Source of the DNA: Shigella phage phi25-307
Length of the DNA stretch: 64,000 bases
Sequence record: MG589383
Strand: one strand, 5' to 3'
Positions 7,996 to 63,489 of this stretch are shown here, piece by piece (within the stretch, counting starts at the first letter, position 1; every line of letters begins with the position of its first letter). The notes beneath the pieces are model-generated. The model ran no database searches. It was given only the letters and a program-made list of their open reading frames with translations, and had not been told where the DNA came from. Position numbers and translations under genes: made by a program.

Positions 7996-8024
7996 ATAGT
8001 AACACATCCTACAGGAGAGTAAAC
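7996..8024 (-). promoter_or_regulatory. Early promoter (GTTTAC, 17-nt spacer, TACTAT)
   Basis: Minus strand GTTTACTCTCCTGTAGGATGTGTTACTATAGAC. Confidence 0.5.
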
Positions 8025-15084: not shown

Positions 15085-15114
15085 ATAGTAACACCATCCT
15101 TGGTGTTTGTAAAC
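15085..15114 (-). promoter_or_regulatory. Early promoter (GTTTACA, 18 nt, TACTAT)
   Basis: Minus strand GTTTACAAACACCAAGGATGGTGTTACTATGGC. Confidence 0.5.
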
Positions 15115-16266: not shown

Positions 16267-16296
16267 ATTGTACCACAATCCTTGTGGCGTGTAAAC
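16267..16296 (-). promoter_or_regulatory. Early promoter (TTTACA, 17 nt, TACAAT) with CCACAAGG/ATTGTGG inverted repeat, upstream of rnlA
   Basis: Minus strand GTTTACACGCCACAAGGATTGTGGTACAAT. Confidence 0.5.
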
Positions 16297-22980: not shown

Positions 22981-23009
22981 ATAATATCACATCTAGGGAA
23001 GAAGTAAAC
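22981..23009 (-). promoter_or_regulatory. PeSL-like early promoter cassette (family A)
   Basis: Minus strand GTTTACTTCTTCCCTAGATGTGATATTATAGTTCTATC; near-identical to the cassette at 52392-52420. Confidence 0.55.
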
Positions 23010-51074: not shown

Positions 51075-51099
51075 ATTCTATCATCCGAAATCTAAAGCA
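51075..51099 (-). promoter_or_regulatory. MotA-dependent middle promoter for gene 39 (TGCTTTA, 12 nt, TAGAAT)
   Basis: Minus strand TTTGCTTTAGATTTCGGATGATAGAAT, just downstream of the UUCG hairpin terminator at 51104-51115. Confidence 0.45.
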
Positions 51100-51100
51100 A

Positions 51101-51115
51101 AAAGGGCCGAAGCCC
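51101..51115 (-). terminator. Intrinsic terminator (GGGC-UUCG-GCCC plus UUUUUG)
   Basis: Short GC hairpin with UUCG loop directly after the stop of ORF 51116..51541. Confidence 0.5.
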
Positions 51116-51541
51116 TTATTTAAATTTAATTTTCTGAAGTGCATCAATTGCAGCCAAACGCCCTTGTTCACTTTTAACTGTAATGACCACATCGCCTGAT
51201 ACGATCACCGAACCATCAACAAATTCTATAGAGCCTTTTTTGAAATCGACAGATGTATCTGGTTCCGGAACTTCTTCAAAGAATTTAAATTCTGCACCAT
51301 AAAGCAGAATATCACCTTGCATACTATGAATAGTTCGGCCATAATCGCCTACGGCTTCTACAGCAATCACAGAAACGCCGTAACCAATCATCTCTTCCAC
51401 AATAAAATCTTTGGACAATAAAGTAGTATGCAGATTAGTATTAAGACGTTTACCAGTCGTATTAAGAATTCTCAAGAAATTATCTTCCTGTCCTTTGATA
51501 ATACGATATTTCTTACCAACTTCAAAACCTTTAAAAGCCAT
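51116..51541 (-). CDS. Hypothetical protein, 141 aa
   Basis: ORF upstream of gene 39. Confidence 0.55.
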   Translation of the reverse strand: MAFKGFEVGKKYRIIKGQEDNFLRILNTTGKRLNTNLHTTLLSKDFIVEEMIGYGVSVIAVEAVGDYGRTIHSMQGDILLYGAEFKFFEEVPEPDTSVDFKKGSIEFVDGSVIVSGDVVITVKSEQGRLAAIDALQKIKFK

Positions 51542-51725: not shown

Positions 51726-52136
51726 TTATTCCTTAAAATGTGCTTTCAACATTTGATACAAAGACCATGCCTGGTCGTTATTTTCGATAGTAATCGTCAT
51801 CACCGGAAATTCAGACAATTCGTCAAGTTCACCAGAATCTTGCTCTTCGGACGCTTGATATGGATTTTCAACTTCGTCAAAGAACTCTGCTTCATTCGTG
51901 GAGAGCCAGATAAAGTTTTCATCAAGGATATCACCGCCTGTTGCGTATCCAACCGTGCCAGTAGATGTCACAATTTTAGTAGGACGGCCAAGATGGTCAA
52001 CATCTAATACTTTAAATGGTTCCATGCCAAGACGTCGTGCATAAATCCCATTATCAGTGTGGTCTTTAATAAACTCTTCTTGGGCACGTTTATCTATAAA
52101 TTGGTACCATGAGTTAACGCGGAATTTATTAGCCAT
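51726..52136 (-). CDS. Hypothetical acidic protein, 136 aa
   Basis: Start trimmed to the ATG overlapping the upstream stop (TAATG); begins [10 protein letters not shown]. Confidence 0.5.
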
Positions 52137-52363
52137 TAGTAAGTTTCCTTCCAATAAGTTGTACCGTTTTCAGTGATTTCACGGAAGATACCATAGATAG
52201 GCATTTCATCACCGAGTTTTTCGTAAACGTAAATCACTTCTGTGTAGCATAAAAATTCGGTCCAGTTTTTCTGTACAACAACTAAATCAGGATTAAACAG
52301 AACATCTTCAAACTCATCGATGTTTGAATCAGTAGTTACGTTTTTAATGATTTGGCGTTTCAT
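52136..52363 (-). CDS. Hypothetical protein, 75 aa
   Basis: Start trimmed to ATG 52363, preceded by GAGGAG and the promoter at 52392-52420. Confidence 0.5.
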
Positions 52364-52391
52364 AATATTCTCCTCTTGTTTTGATAGGTCT

Positions 52392-52420
52392 ATAGTAACA
52401 CATCTAGAGGAGAAGTAAAC
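52392..52420 (-). promoter_or_regulatory. PeSL-like early promoter cassette (family A)
   Basis: Minus strand GTTTACTTCTCCTCTAGATGTGTTACTATAGACCTATC. Confidence 0.55.
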
Positions 52421-52424
52421 AACT

Positions 52425-52844
52425 TTATGCAAAAGATGCTGGACAATATTTTTTGATTTGGAACTCAGGAACTACCATGAACTGTCCAGCGAAAACGATG
52501 TTATAAAGCTTAACACCATCTTCTACCCAACGGTCGCTAATAAATCCGGCGATTTGCTTAGTTTTCCACGGCGTTCCATCGGTTCCCGCAGCAATAGTGA
52601 ATTCATGGTCTTTTACAACTAAAACAGACCTGCACAGTTTCCATTTGAACGCTTTTTCTTCTGGCTCAATGAATTGGCTTGAGACGTAGCCAATGTTGCC
52701 ATCGGCGTCACGAACTTTAACTTGATGTGGACTAAAGAGTCCACAACTTACAGAAAGAACTTCAACCAACTTCCCGGCAACTTTAGAGCGAGAAGCAACA
52801 GATACATATACGTAATCACCTGTAGAGAGATTTACAATATTCAT
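52425..52844 (-). CDS. Hypothetical protein, 139 aa; paralog of 52854..53309
   Basis: Shares VSVASRSKVAGKLVEV and FISDRWVEDGVKLYNIVFAGQF with its upstream neighbour. Confidence 0.6.
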   Translation of the reverse strand: MNIVNLSTGDYVYVSVASRSKVAGKLVEVLSVSCGLFSPHQVKVRDADGNIGYVSSQFIEPEEKAFKWKLCRSVLVVKDHEFTIAAGTDGTPWKTKQIAGFISDRWVEDGVKLYNIVFAGQFMVVPEFQIKKYCPASFA

Positions 52845-52853
52845 AATAATTCC

Positions 52854-53309
52854 TTAAGCTTTACGAGGAGACACATAGCGAGTGATTTCAGATTCTTTAA
52901 CAACTCGGAAGTCACCTAAGAATACGATATTGTATAACTTTTCACCATCTTCAACCCATTGGTCACTAATGAAGCCACACATAGTATCAGTTTTGCTTGG
53001 ATAACCGTATTCGTCGATGTAATCAAATTCTTTATCGGTTATAAATTCAACGCCTTTGCAAAGGGCCCATTTGAACTGTACATTAGGTTCAGTAGAAGCA
53101 AAATGAGCACTCACATGAGTTTCCAGGAATTTAGGACTTACGTAAGCGTACTGAGTATCCTGACGTCCAAAACTAGGAATGATTCGAACTTTAACTTCTT
53201 TAATACGTCCCATGCCATTTGTGCGAAGTCCGACAACTTCAACCAGACGACCTGCGGCTTTAGACCGGGATGCAGTTGATACACGCTTAATTTCACCAAT
53301 AGTAATCAT
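52854..53309 (-). CDS. Hypothetical protein, 151 aa; paralog of 52425..52844
   Basis: Start trimmed to ATG 53309 (the track start lies inside the -10 element); shares STASRSKAAGRLVEV and FISDQWVEDGEKLYNIVFLGDF with its neighbour. Confidence 0.6.
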   Translation of the reverse strand: MITIGEIKRVSTASRSKAAGRLVEVVGLRTNGMGRIKEVKVRIIPSFGRQDTQYAYVSPKFLETHVSAHFASTEPNVQFKWALCKGVEFITDKEFDYIDEYGYPSKTDTMCGFISDQWVEDGEKLYNIVFLGDFRVVKESEITRYVSPRKA

Positions 53310-53339
53310 AATTTTTCTCTCTTTGTTTAAGTTGAATTC

Positions 53340-53369
53340 ATTATACTCCATCCATCCTTGGATGTAAAC
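53340..53369 (-). promoter_or_regulatory. Early promoter (GTTTAC, 18 nt, TATAAT)
   Basis: Minus strand GTTTACATCCAAGGATGGATGGAGTATAAT. Confidence 0.5.
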
Positions 53370-53374
53370 TGGTT

Positions 53375-54052
53375 TTATCGCTGTTTTACACTTAACGGGT
53401 CAGGATTTTCAGGGACATCTTCAAGGCCAAGCGCATAACGCTGAGCATATTTTAACATCAAAATATCTTTAGCACAATCATGAATACTATCATGGGCAAC
53501 GAATCCTTTTAACGTACCCAACGGTAATGGACACATACTTAATCCTCGTGTCAACGAGTAAGCTTCGATTGCCGTACGAATATCGCGTTGAGCCCAGAAT
53601 TTAACCGGTTCTAATTTATCAGTATCAATCTCTGGTTCAGGAACACCTTCATCACGATAGAGGTCACGAATCAAATCGACTAATATCGGGAAGTCAAAGC
53701 TCATACCACGGCACCACATCTGTGATTTCCATTGGTCAACTTTATTAGCTCGACAATAATCTAAAAAGATTTTAATGCCTTCAAGCGTAGTGACATCGTC
53801 TTCAGACGGAGCCAAGTTTTTACGTGCTTCAGCCGATTGTTCTTTCCACCATTTCATAGTGGATTTAGCGAAAACTCGCTTCCCTTTCTGAGAAGCTAAA
53901 TTAAATTTAATTCGTTTACCTCGTTGAACAAGTTCTTCAAATGATTCAACAACTTCAGGGTCGGAATTATATGCAATAACCGCAAGGTCAATAACAGCCG
54001 CTTTTGATGTATTGCCGAATGTTTCAAAATCTATAATAACATCAGTGCTCAT
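53375..54052 (-). CDS. dexA: Exonuclease A (DnaQ-like 3'-5' exonuclease), 225 aa
   Basis: N-terminal DnaQ Exo I motif VIIDFETFG; size close to T4 DexA (227 aa); position upstream of dda as in T4. Confidence 0.75.
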   Translation of the reverse strand: MSTDVIIDFETFGNTSKAAVIDLAVIAYNSDPEVVESFEELVQRGKRIKFNLASQKGKRVFAKSTMKWWKEQSAEARKNLAPSEDDVTTLEGIKIFLDYCRANKVDQWKSQMWCRGMSFDFPILVDLIRDLYRDEGVPEPEIDTDKLEPVKFWAQRDIRTAIEAYSLTRGLSMCPLPLGTLKGFVAHDSIHDCAKDILMLKYAQRYALGLEDVPENPDPLSVKQR

Positions 54053-54061
54053 AATTTTCTC

Positions 54062-55375
54062 TCAAATAAAATGGACGTCAAACCGGCCACGAGTTGTGCC
54101 GACATACAATAACTGTTTAGCTAATTCTGAATCGGCATAATGGATACACGGTGTATAAACAAAGGCCGTGTCAACAGACATACCCTGGGCCTTATGGAAG
54201 GTTGATACTGGTAGTGCCTTCACCTTAGTGAACATACGTTTAGCATCCCAGAATTCGCTCCATGGAGCTTTACCACCTTTATTCCAAAATTTGTATGTTT
54301 CTGCGGTCTTAGCCAAAAACAAATTGAATTTATAAAGCTCTTCTTCAGAAGAAATAACCTTTATATCTTCGCGGATGTATTCTTCATCATCCCCATATGT
54401 TTCTACTGTAAGATTCCAGTATCGTATCATATATTCGCCCGAAACACCACGTGCTTTAACGAATGTAGACGTTTCTACAGCATCTCTAATACGAACGAAT
54501 TGGCCGTTATTGAAAAGCATTTCGGTAATATTTTTACCATCTAGCTTATATGTCTTAGTAAATGGCTCCTGTAGAACAATGACTTCGTCTTTAATAAATG
54601 GTTTTTCTGTTTCAAGAAGTTTTCGTCGAATAATTGAATTTAACTTGTCCACCGACTTATTTGTGAATGCCATCATTCGATTTTCGAAAAGGTCTTCAGG
54701 AGTTTTAACGACGTTAAAATAGTTCATCATATACGATTTAAGGTCTGTATATCCGTGAACACCATGTCCATCAACTACTTTATCGTAAATCCATTTGCCA
54801 TTACGAATATCAGTAGCAACATCAATAATTGGTGCATTGCTACGTTTAACTTCTGTAAGGTTGCATTGCACGAAGTCTTTGTGAGTGAAGAAAGGACTTA
54901 GATACGCAGTTGATTCGCCTGGGTCTACCGGACGAATCTGGCATCGGTCGCCGATGCCAATTACTGTACACCATTTAGGGATACTAGCTAACATTATTTT
55001 AAACAGAGAACGGTCGCACATTGACGCTTCATCAAATAACAGTACACGGCACAAGGCTAGGTCTGGAACCTTTTTCTGTTCAAACAATACGTTTTCTTCG
55101 TATGTAGTTGGGTTGATTTTAAGAATGCTATGAATAGTCGATGCTTCTTGTCCCGCAAGTTTACTTAGAACCTTTTTAGCGGCATGTGTAGGGGCTGCTA
55201 AAATAATACCTGATTCTCCAGAAGAAATAAGGGCTTCAACGATGAATCTAGTAAGGGTTGTTTTACCTGTACCAGCAGGCCCATTAATAGTTACGTGATG
55301 TTTCTTTTCTTTAATAGCGTTCATAACAACGTTGAAGGCGTTTTTCTGGCCTTCAGTCAAATCATCAAATGTCAT
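54062..55375 (-). CDS. dda: Dda DNA helicase (SF1B), 437 aa
   Basis: Walker A INGPAGTGKTTL, Walker B LLFDEASM; size close to T4 Dda (439 aa). Confidence 0.9.
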   Translation of the reverse strand: MTFDDLTEGQKNAFNVVMNAIKEKKHHVTINGPAGTGKTTLTRFIVEALISSGESGIILAAPTHAAKKVLSKLAGQEASTIHSILKINPTTYEENVLFEQKKVPDLALCRVLLFDEASMCDRSLFKIMLASIPKWCTVIGIGDRCQIRPVDPGESTAYLSPFFTHKDFVQCNLTEVKRSNAPIIDVATDIRNGKWIYDKVVDGHGVHGYTDLKSYMMNYFNVVKTPEDLFENRMMAFTNKSVDKLNSIIRRKLLETEKPFIKDEVIVLQEPFTKTYKLDGKNITEMLFNNGQFVRIRDAVETSTFVKARGVSGEYMIRYWNLTVETYGDDEEYIREDIKVISSEEELYKFNLFLAKTAETYKFWNKGGKAPWSEFWDAKRMFTKVKALPVSTFHKAQGMSVDTAFVYTPCIHYADSELAKQLLYVGTTRGRFDVHFI

Positions 55376-58393: not shown

Positions 58394-58563
58394 TCAGAAT
58401 AACTTGACCCAGAATCACCAGGCCAAGACGATACGTATGAATGATTATAATCGGAAGAGCTTGAAGCATTAACCTGTTTTGTTTTTGGACGAACAACTTC
58501 TTCCATCATTCCGTCACCGATATATTCCCAACTTTTTTCGTGTGTATCAGGAATAGGCATCAT
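58363..58563 (-). CDS. Hypothetical Ser-rich protein, 66 aa
   Basis: Track ORF 58363..58686 trimmed to the first ATG after the upstream stop, preceded by AAGG. Confidence 0.4.
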   Translation of the reverse strand: MMPIPDTHEKSWEYIGDGMMEEVVRPKTKQVNASSSSDYNHSYVSSWPGDSGSSYSDCGSSSGSCE

Positions 58564-63459: not shown

Positions 63460-63489
63460 ATAGTAACACAGTATGTGGTGCTTGTAAAC
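63460..63489 (-). promoter_or_regulatory. Early promoter (GTTTACA, 18 nt, TACTAT)
   Basis: Minus strand GTTTACAAGCACCACATACTGTGTTACTATC. Confidence 0.5.

Follow-up and report, generated by a model that had tools for sequence, protein, structure and literature searches.

The 64-kb stretch of DNA analysed here (the window) carries two adjacent open reading frames, designated motB copy A and motB copy B, on the minus strand between the genes for the DexA exonuclease and Cef (Table 1). Their sizes and positions agree with a preliminary description of this DNA, which had also placed the pair upstream of dexA. Every gene at this locus is on the minus strand, however, and the pair is therefore transcriptionally downstream of dexA. 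Downstream of cef, and on the same strand, are a goF-like gene, a 39.2-like zinc ribbon, a 141-aa ORF and the gene 39 topoisomerase. The locus is thus a classic T4-type early region of a Mosigvirus-like phage. The frame formed by cef and dexA around motB is shared by the window, T4, T6, JS98, P896, Sf24 and mogra, and there is synteny with phage ST2 too. Furthermore, the window DNA is 93-95% identical (Megablast) to the Mosigvirus phages SF, JS09, TU01 and ST2, whose records annotate the pair as "MotB-like transcriptional regulator (x2)", "modifier of transcription" or "transcriptional regulator". The 171-kb T4-like genome of Escherichia phage ST2 (L001; OM982647.1), which is collinear with the window at this locus and 94% identical to it, is filed in the GenBank taxonomy under Guernseyvirinae; Kagunavirus, a siphovirus genus, evidently through a mis-assigned taxid.

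Table 1. Genes, promoter cassettes and intergenic spacer at the motB locus (coordinates of the window)
Feature	Coordinates	Strand	Description
cef	52136-52366	minus	PF24050 T4_Cef, E=4.3e-34; downstream neighbour of B
Early promoter cassette, after the B stop and before cef	52392-52420	minus	GTTTAC-N17-TACTAT
motB copy B	52425-52844	minus	139 aa; compact MotB paralog, RB69ORF010c type
A-B spacer	52845-52853	minus	9 nt, GCTTAAGGAATTATTATG; Shine-Dalgarno-like AAGGA overlapping the TAA stop of A (read from sequence)
motB copy A	52854-53309	minus	151 aa from ATG 53309; closer relative of T4 MotB
Early promoter cassette, upstream of A	53340-53369	minus	GTTTACA, 17-nt spacer with hairpin CATCCAaggaTGGATG, TATAAT
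dexA exonuclease	53375-54052	minus	PF16473, E=4.8e-20; PHROG 255, E=3e-81; upstream neighbour of A
dda	54062-55375	minus	First in the transcription order dda, dexA, A, B, cef

The reading frame of A is also open further upstream, and an ATG at 53351 would give a protein of 165 aa (52854-53351). We prefer the 151-aa start because the resulting N-terminus aligns with that of T4 MotB (MITIGE versus MIINIGE) and because the alternative ATG falls within the spacer of the early promoter.

Two other ORFs in the vicinity, of 141 aa (51116-51541, minus strand) and 136 aa (51726-52136, minus strand), flank the 39.2-like zinc-ribbon gene and match PHROG 622 (E=8.5e-22 and 1.3e-39, respectively) as well as GoF-type PHROGs. 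These matches suggest that both ORFs probably belong to the GoF/MotB.1/Frd.2 family of LSm-like proteins (PMC12152347). The direct similarity between the two GoF-like proteins is marginal (BLASTP, E=0.026). At the position of the 141-aa ORF, T4 has an unrelated 65-aa protein, gp39.1.

A and B are adjacent, same-strand and considerably diverged paralogs. Residues 6-133 of B align to residues 2-145 of A with 43% identity (BLASTP; 98 bits, E=5e-32), much more than chance would produce. The two blocks from which their kinship was first proposed, ASRSK.AG.LVEV and FISD.WVEDG.KLYNIVF.G.F, are present verbatim in both proteins, the former as ASRSKAAGRLVEV in A and ASRSKVAGKLVEV in B and the latter as FISDQWVEDGEKLYNIVFLGDF in A and FISDRWVEDGVKLYNIVFAGQF in B, and the similarity reaches far past these short motifs. 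A six-frame HMM scan identified A and B as the only members of their family in the 64-kb window.

The family, reported as unknown in the preliminary description, is that of MotB. A matches the Pfam MotB domain (PF17613) with 130 bits (E=9.8e-38; profile positions 2-157 of 162) and B with 78.8 bits (E=5.5e-22; profile positions 5-162), both above the gathering threshold of 25 bits. The two proteins also match PHROG 1671, "MotB-like transcriptional regulator" (E=1.2e-64 for A and 1.7e-50 for B). [quoted passage not shown] A and B are, therefore, clearly full-length members of the MotB family. Over the full length, A is 48% identical to T4 MotB (NP_049626; E=9e-44) and B is 37% identical to it (E=2e-26). 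Like T4 MotB, they have the SRSKAAGK motif in the KOW/SH3-like NTD and the QWVEDGVKLYNVVF motif in the beta CTD, and they occupy the same slot between cef and dexA in the same early-promoter context. The loci differ in that the one full-length motB of T4 precedes motB.1 and motB.2, whereas the window has two full-length motB genes and neither motB.1 nor motB.2. The MotB family is narrow: a profile search of 1.84 billion cluster representatives recovered only 33 clusters and no informative remote relatives. A sequence search of the PDB with A gave no meaningful match (best E=0.79), and hence no member of the family with a solved structure.

We also considered whether B could be a protein of the MotB.1 type, which shares only the CTD with MotB, and rejected this assignment because the NTD of B matches the MotB profile. 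T4 MotB.1 and MotB.1-like proteins (categories 2 and 4 of Patterson-West et al., 2021; the LSm-like NTD family of Kim et al., 2025) have in common with MotB, A and B the C-terminal domain and its W(V/I)EDG-(K/E)L-N(V/I)V motif. However, their NTD is unrelated (LSm-like) and the proteins as a whole are acidic (pI 4.6-5.1), whereas the NTD of B carries the SRSK-AG-LVEV of MotB. Consistent with this, A and B align to the MotB profile from the start of the profile onwards, whereas the MotB.1-like proteins of mogra, Sf24 and JS98 match only positions ~69/114-150. A scan of the full 64 kb found no MotB.1-like gene in the window.

T4 MotB is an early protein that is non-essential, confers a roughly 2-fold benefit in burst size and is toxic when overexpressed (PMC6070864, PMC7827196). 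Its DNA binding is sequence-nonspecific and extends to unmodified and glucosyl-hmC DNA alike. It also co-purifies with H-NS and StpA, changes the H-NS footprint and relieves the repression of some of the H-NS regulon (PMC6070864, PMC7827196). Others' summaries of a further study (Son et al., 2021, NAR, PMC8450097) describe it as a phage nucleoid-associated protein that compacts DNA. The presence of a second copy has precedent as well. The family survey of Patterson-West et al. (2021; PMC7827196) reported two motB copies in RB69, a Mosigvirus, and its supplementary table includes short copies ~35-37% identical to T4 MotB, namely RB69ORF010c (labelled "similar to motB" from the annotation of the RB69 genome onwards), JS09_0170, Sf24 gp134 and RB51 ORF010. 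The tandem pair is thus already known from annotation and from the literature. As a discovery it matters little, both genes having been named MotB-like in curated annotation and the second copy having appeared in a published survey. To our knowledge, no characterisation of the short, B-type copy has been published.

The sequences bracketing the pair suggest how it may be expressed. The cassette upstream of A matches the sigma-70 consensus at 11 of 12 positions. A total of 18 matches to the early motif GTTTAC-N17/18-TAnnAT were found across the window (0.7 expected by chance), every one of them on the minus strand. Two of these matches bracket the pair, and others on the same strand lie, for example, at 633-662, 7996-8024, 15085-15114, 16267-16296, 22981-23009 and 63460-63489. 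Several of the spacers carry a short palindrome with an AAGGA-type loop (e.g., ACACCAAGGATGGTGT and CCACAAGGATTGTGG), as does the one upstream of motB copy A. Judged from these motifs, the 18 matches look like a family of PeSL-type cassettes spread across the early region.

Each gene of the pair had been credited with a promoter cassette of its own. We identified one predicted early promoter before A and none between the genes, which are 9 nt apart, and the second cassette follows B and would serve cef. The spacer is too small for a promoter, and a scan of the minus strand between 52845 and ~53000 for sigma-70 promoters, the T4 early motif and the MotA-box middle motif detected no dedicated promoter for B. 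Similarly, consensus matching found neither a MotA-box middle promoter in 52400-53400 nor a late promoter. The simplest reading of these consensus matches is that A and B form a bicistronic early transcription unit. The two genes would be co-transcribed from the single early promoter (53369-53340), with additional read-through from dexA, and B would be translated from its own Shine-Dalgarno sequence, 9 nt past the stop of A. A weak internal promoter or an RNA processing site may also precede B. In the window at large, MotA-box-like matches (TGCTTnA-N11-13-TAnnnT) number 12, against 3.9 expected, and include minus-strand sites at 51075-51099, 51282-51306 and 58444-58468. The first of these is just upstream of gene 39 and adjoins a terminator-like hairpin (51102-51117).

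The hairpin in the spacer of the A cassette has a 6-bp stem (-7.3 kcal/mol) that is indistinguishable from shuffled sequences (z=-0.5), and no T-tract terminator is predicted there. Its stem differs in a compensatory manner from that of mogra (CATCCA/TGGATG in the window versus CAACCA/TGGTTG in mogra). The cef cassette and leader (52360-52425, minus strand) can fold into a hairpin with a 9-bp stem, CTCCTCT...AGAGGAG, whose stability (-14.1 kcal/mol, z=-1.5) is likewise not significant. As read from the sequence, the latter hairpin would sequester GAGGAG, the cef Shine-Dalgarno sequence. Given the unexceptional stability of both hairpins, we make no claim that they function as terminators.

The same cassettes mark the places where gene content varies among close relatives. 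The interval between cef and dexA holds two genes in the window, ST2 and PNJ-9. It holds three in NHEP36 and similar phages, where an extra motB.2-like gene adjoins cef, and four in mogra, JS09, TU01 and LF82-9, which have in addition a motB.1-like gene adjoining dexA. Window positions 53366-53303 match two sites in mogra that flank the motB.1-like gene, and positions 52400-52361 match two that flank the motB.2-like gene (BLASTN). Each window cassette is a hybrid of its two mogra counterparts, with a left part like the upstream copy and a right part like the downstream copy and a crossover within the shared promoter core. The cassettes therefore coincide with the indel junctions between the window and mogra. 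PeSL cassettes are strong early promoters present in repeated copies (TTTACW-N17-TAYWAT in the T4/PST group), many of which have a stem-loop between the -35 and -10 elements (Arbiol et al., 2010, PMC2839356; Comeau et al., 2014, PMC4122927). They sit at the borders of variable genes and mediate their gain and loss (PMC2839356, PMC4122927). Both cassettes around the pair fit this description and the indel junctions, but the stem-loops in the window are short (6 bp) and not statistically distinct from shuffled sequence. The two-gene locus of the window would, then, be the minimal state of a variable locus. In relatives that carry a motB.1-like gene, a motB.2-like gene or both, recombination between repeated early-promoter cassettes (PeSL-type shuffling) would account for the gain or loss of these genes. 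The change in gene number may reflect a deletion in the window lineage or an insertion in others.

Two further observations concern mobility at this locus. The motB.2-like gene (PF26820, Phage_T4_Y00F) adjoins cef in Mosigvirus and dexA in Tequatrovirus and Dhakavirus (coordinates noted in mogra, L005: 2444-2938 and 3945-4469; in Sf24, L006: 1918-2421 and 2434-2928). This difference in position indicates that the gene was relocated within the locus, consistent with cassette shuffling. In a distant relative, Klebsiella phage AmPh_EK29 (L014, 2211-2825), a homing endonuclease gene lies between dexA and a short MotB homolog of 126 aa, which again points to the dexA-motB junction as a hotspot of mobile insertion.

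AF2 models of A and B share the same architecture, a small N-terminal beta-barrel and a C-terminal beta domain, at moderate confidence (pLDDT 78 for A and 82.6 for B; pTM 0.51 and 0.59) and from shallow alignments of 17-20 sequences. The interdomain linker spans 14 aa in A and 4 aa in B, compared to 22 aa in T4 MotB and 46 aa in JS98 MotB. In A, residues 66-82, which cover the linker, are disordered in the model (pLDDT <50). B also lacks the 6-residue extension of the NTD hairpin found in T4 MotB. The domains differ in net charge as well: the NTD carries +7 in A, 0 in B and +5 in T4 MotB, and the CTD carries -4, +3 and +2, respectively. These differences are descriptive and are compatible with subfunctionalisation. 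As a speculation, A could have specialised with its basic NTD, acidic CTD and 14-aa flexible linker, and B with its neutral NTD, mildly basic CTD and 4-aa linker.

By homology to T4 MotB, both would be small proteins of all-beta structure, combining an SH3/KOW-like NTD with a beta-barrel CTD, that are produced right after infection and bind DNA regardless of its sequence. Both would coat or compact DNA and displace or remodel H-NS/StpA, for a modest gain in fitness. For B, DNA binding and the effect on H-NS are extrapolated from a T4 protein to which it is 37% identical. We consider it likely that A and B are two full-length, functional early motB copies of the Tevenvirinae in the canonical cef-motB-dexA slot, co-expressed and, by homology, active in DNA coating and against H-NS.

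Natural hybrids of the two types bear on how the domains work. Protein P0027 (L015, 1373-1894) joins an A-type NTD to a B-type CTD at the conserved FKW and is encoded by the only full-length motB in a contig ordered motB.2, motB.1-like, hybrid and cef. P0029 (L016, 4001-4492; also L017 and L018) joins a T4-type NTD to a B-type CTD and is present in five contigs from at least three independent sequencing runs. P0031 is of the A type up to WVEDG and of the B type thereafter. The hybrid genes are the sole full-length motB in their contigs. They look like products of collapse or exchange by homologous recombination between motB alleles, and some may be artefacts of short-read metagenome assembly. 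Single-copy hybrids in loci without a second full-length motB suggest that the domains work within one polypeptide. B could also be a specialised second nucleoid-targeting protein and no redundant copy, given that the basic NTD surface and flexible linker of canonical MotB are lost in B and its positive charge sits on the CTD. In that role it may bind another substrate (for example, another nucleoid protein of the host, such as StpA or Hha, or DNA that is modified rather than unmodified) or co-assemble with A, in which case the hybrids would show that the NTD and CTD are exchangeable functional modules. We regard this version as possible, if somewhat unlikely.

The pair is widespread. Searches with A (tblastn) matched 770 phage records, 201 of them at an identity of at least 60% (A-type), and searches with B matched 776, with 205 at 80% or more (B-type). 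Thus, the pair is present in roughly a quarter of MotB-carrying phages, including Mosigvirus and a subset of Tequatrovirus (Sf24, pSe_SNUABM_01, RB7 and ime09). In every locus inspected, A precedes B with a spacer of 9-13 nt. The 139-aa "MotB-like protein" of the RB69ORF010c type, found in Mosigvirus and some Tequatrovirus phages (RB51 ORF010, Sf24 gp134 and JS09_0170), is the ortholog of B: its members are 83-97% identical to B, are all 139 aa long and lie immediately downstream of an A-type motB. B differs from them in nothing substantive and is a new allele, the best-matching cluster representative being 97% identical to it and the best-matching phage record 95.7%.

The split between A and B is old. 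The two genes are 53% identical in nucleotide sequence, with dN of 0.55 and a saturated dS of 2.7. Within the conserved block GFISD-WVEDG-KLYNIVF, A and B encode 10 of the 21 identical residues with different codons. These codon differences and the high dS led us to reject recent gene conversion as an explanation for the conserved CTD block. In neighbour-joining (NJ) trees built from p-distances with 100 bootstraps, from full-length and from CTD-only alignments, the B proteins form a clade with 100% support and so do the A proteins. The full-length tree places B outside the A, T4-type and JS98/Gaprivervirus-type MotBs combined (57% support), whereas the CTD-only tree groups A with B (45% support). 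This topology indicates that the A/B split does not postdate the divergence of the main coliphage MotB types, or that B evolved faster. A tandem duplication followed by divergence had been proposed for the pair. The adjacent, same-strand, diverged paralogs bear out the divergence, and duplication in situ is plausible rather than proven, given the weakly supported position of the B clade outside the others.

The same position could mean that B is a xenolog. Under this reading, a divergent motB allele of some other T4-like lineage entered this hyperplastic region beside the resident copy, through homologous recombination or recombination mediated by the cassettes. B is not sister to A in the full-length tree, the locus is demonstrably shuffled by promoter cassettes, and the motB.2-like gene has changed position between Mosigvirus and Tequatrovirus. 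Furthermore, the A+B module is ~83% identical between Mosigvirus and some Tequatrovirus phages, which indicates lateral exchange of the module. However, the deep placement of B and its alternative grouping with A are both weak, and a long-branch effect from faster evolution of B would give the same topology. An intact B without A was found in none of the inspected loci, where B always lies directly beside an A-type copy, and the A-type and B-type records are nearly equal in number. We consider a foreign origin of B unlikely.

B might instead act as a partner or modulator of A, by forming a heteromer with it or by competing for H-NS/StpA or some other host target, so that the pair would be a two-component unit. 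The co-occurrence and tight linkage of the genes, the short spacer that makes co-transcription likely and the complementary charges of the two proteins (a strongly basic NTD and acidic CTD in A against a neutral NTD and basic CTD in B) would suit such a unit. The related protein MotB.1 runs as both monomer and dimer (PMC12152347). Yet T4 and most Tequatrovirus phages have a single MotB, and the hybrids that combine a B-type CTD with an NTD of the A or T4 type occur as single copies in loci without a second full-length motB. This makes a two-component unit improbable in our view.

Both copies are under purifying selection. Across seven phages, the omega values of A were 0.08-0.31, apart from a single value of 0.63 at dS=0.09, and those of B, for which dS reached 0.69, were 0.09-0.25. 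B keeps an open frame of exactly 139 aa in each of the seven loci that were compared, and 24 of its 25 closest cluster representatives do so as well. A redundant, decaying duplicate without a function of its own, to which the shorter length of B, the loss of its NTD hairpin insertion and linker, its lower MotB score (78.8 versus 130 bits) and the dispensability of motB in T4 (PMC6070864) might point, is strongly disfavoured by this intact frame, the low omega of B and the retention of all family-invariant residues, and we regard it as very improbable.

The preferred reading remains that of two functional, co-expressed motB copies. The locus is a clean textbook example of gene gain and loss mediated by promoter cassettes in the hyperplastic regions of T4-like phages. 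Few nucleoid-associated, anti-H-NS proteins are encoded by phages, and MotB is among them; in roughly one quarter of the MotB-carrying phages of the collection, purifying selection maintains a second, compact paralog. Comparison of A with B, together with the natural NTD/CTD hybrids, would offer an inexpensive way to assign DNA binding and the effect on H-NS to one or the other MotB domain.
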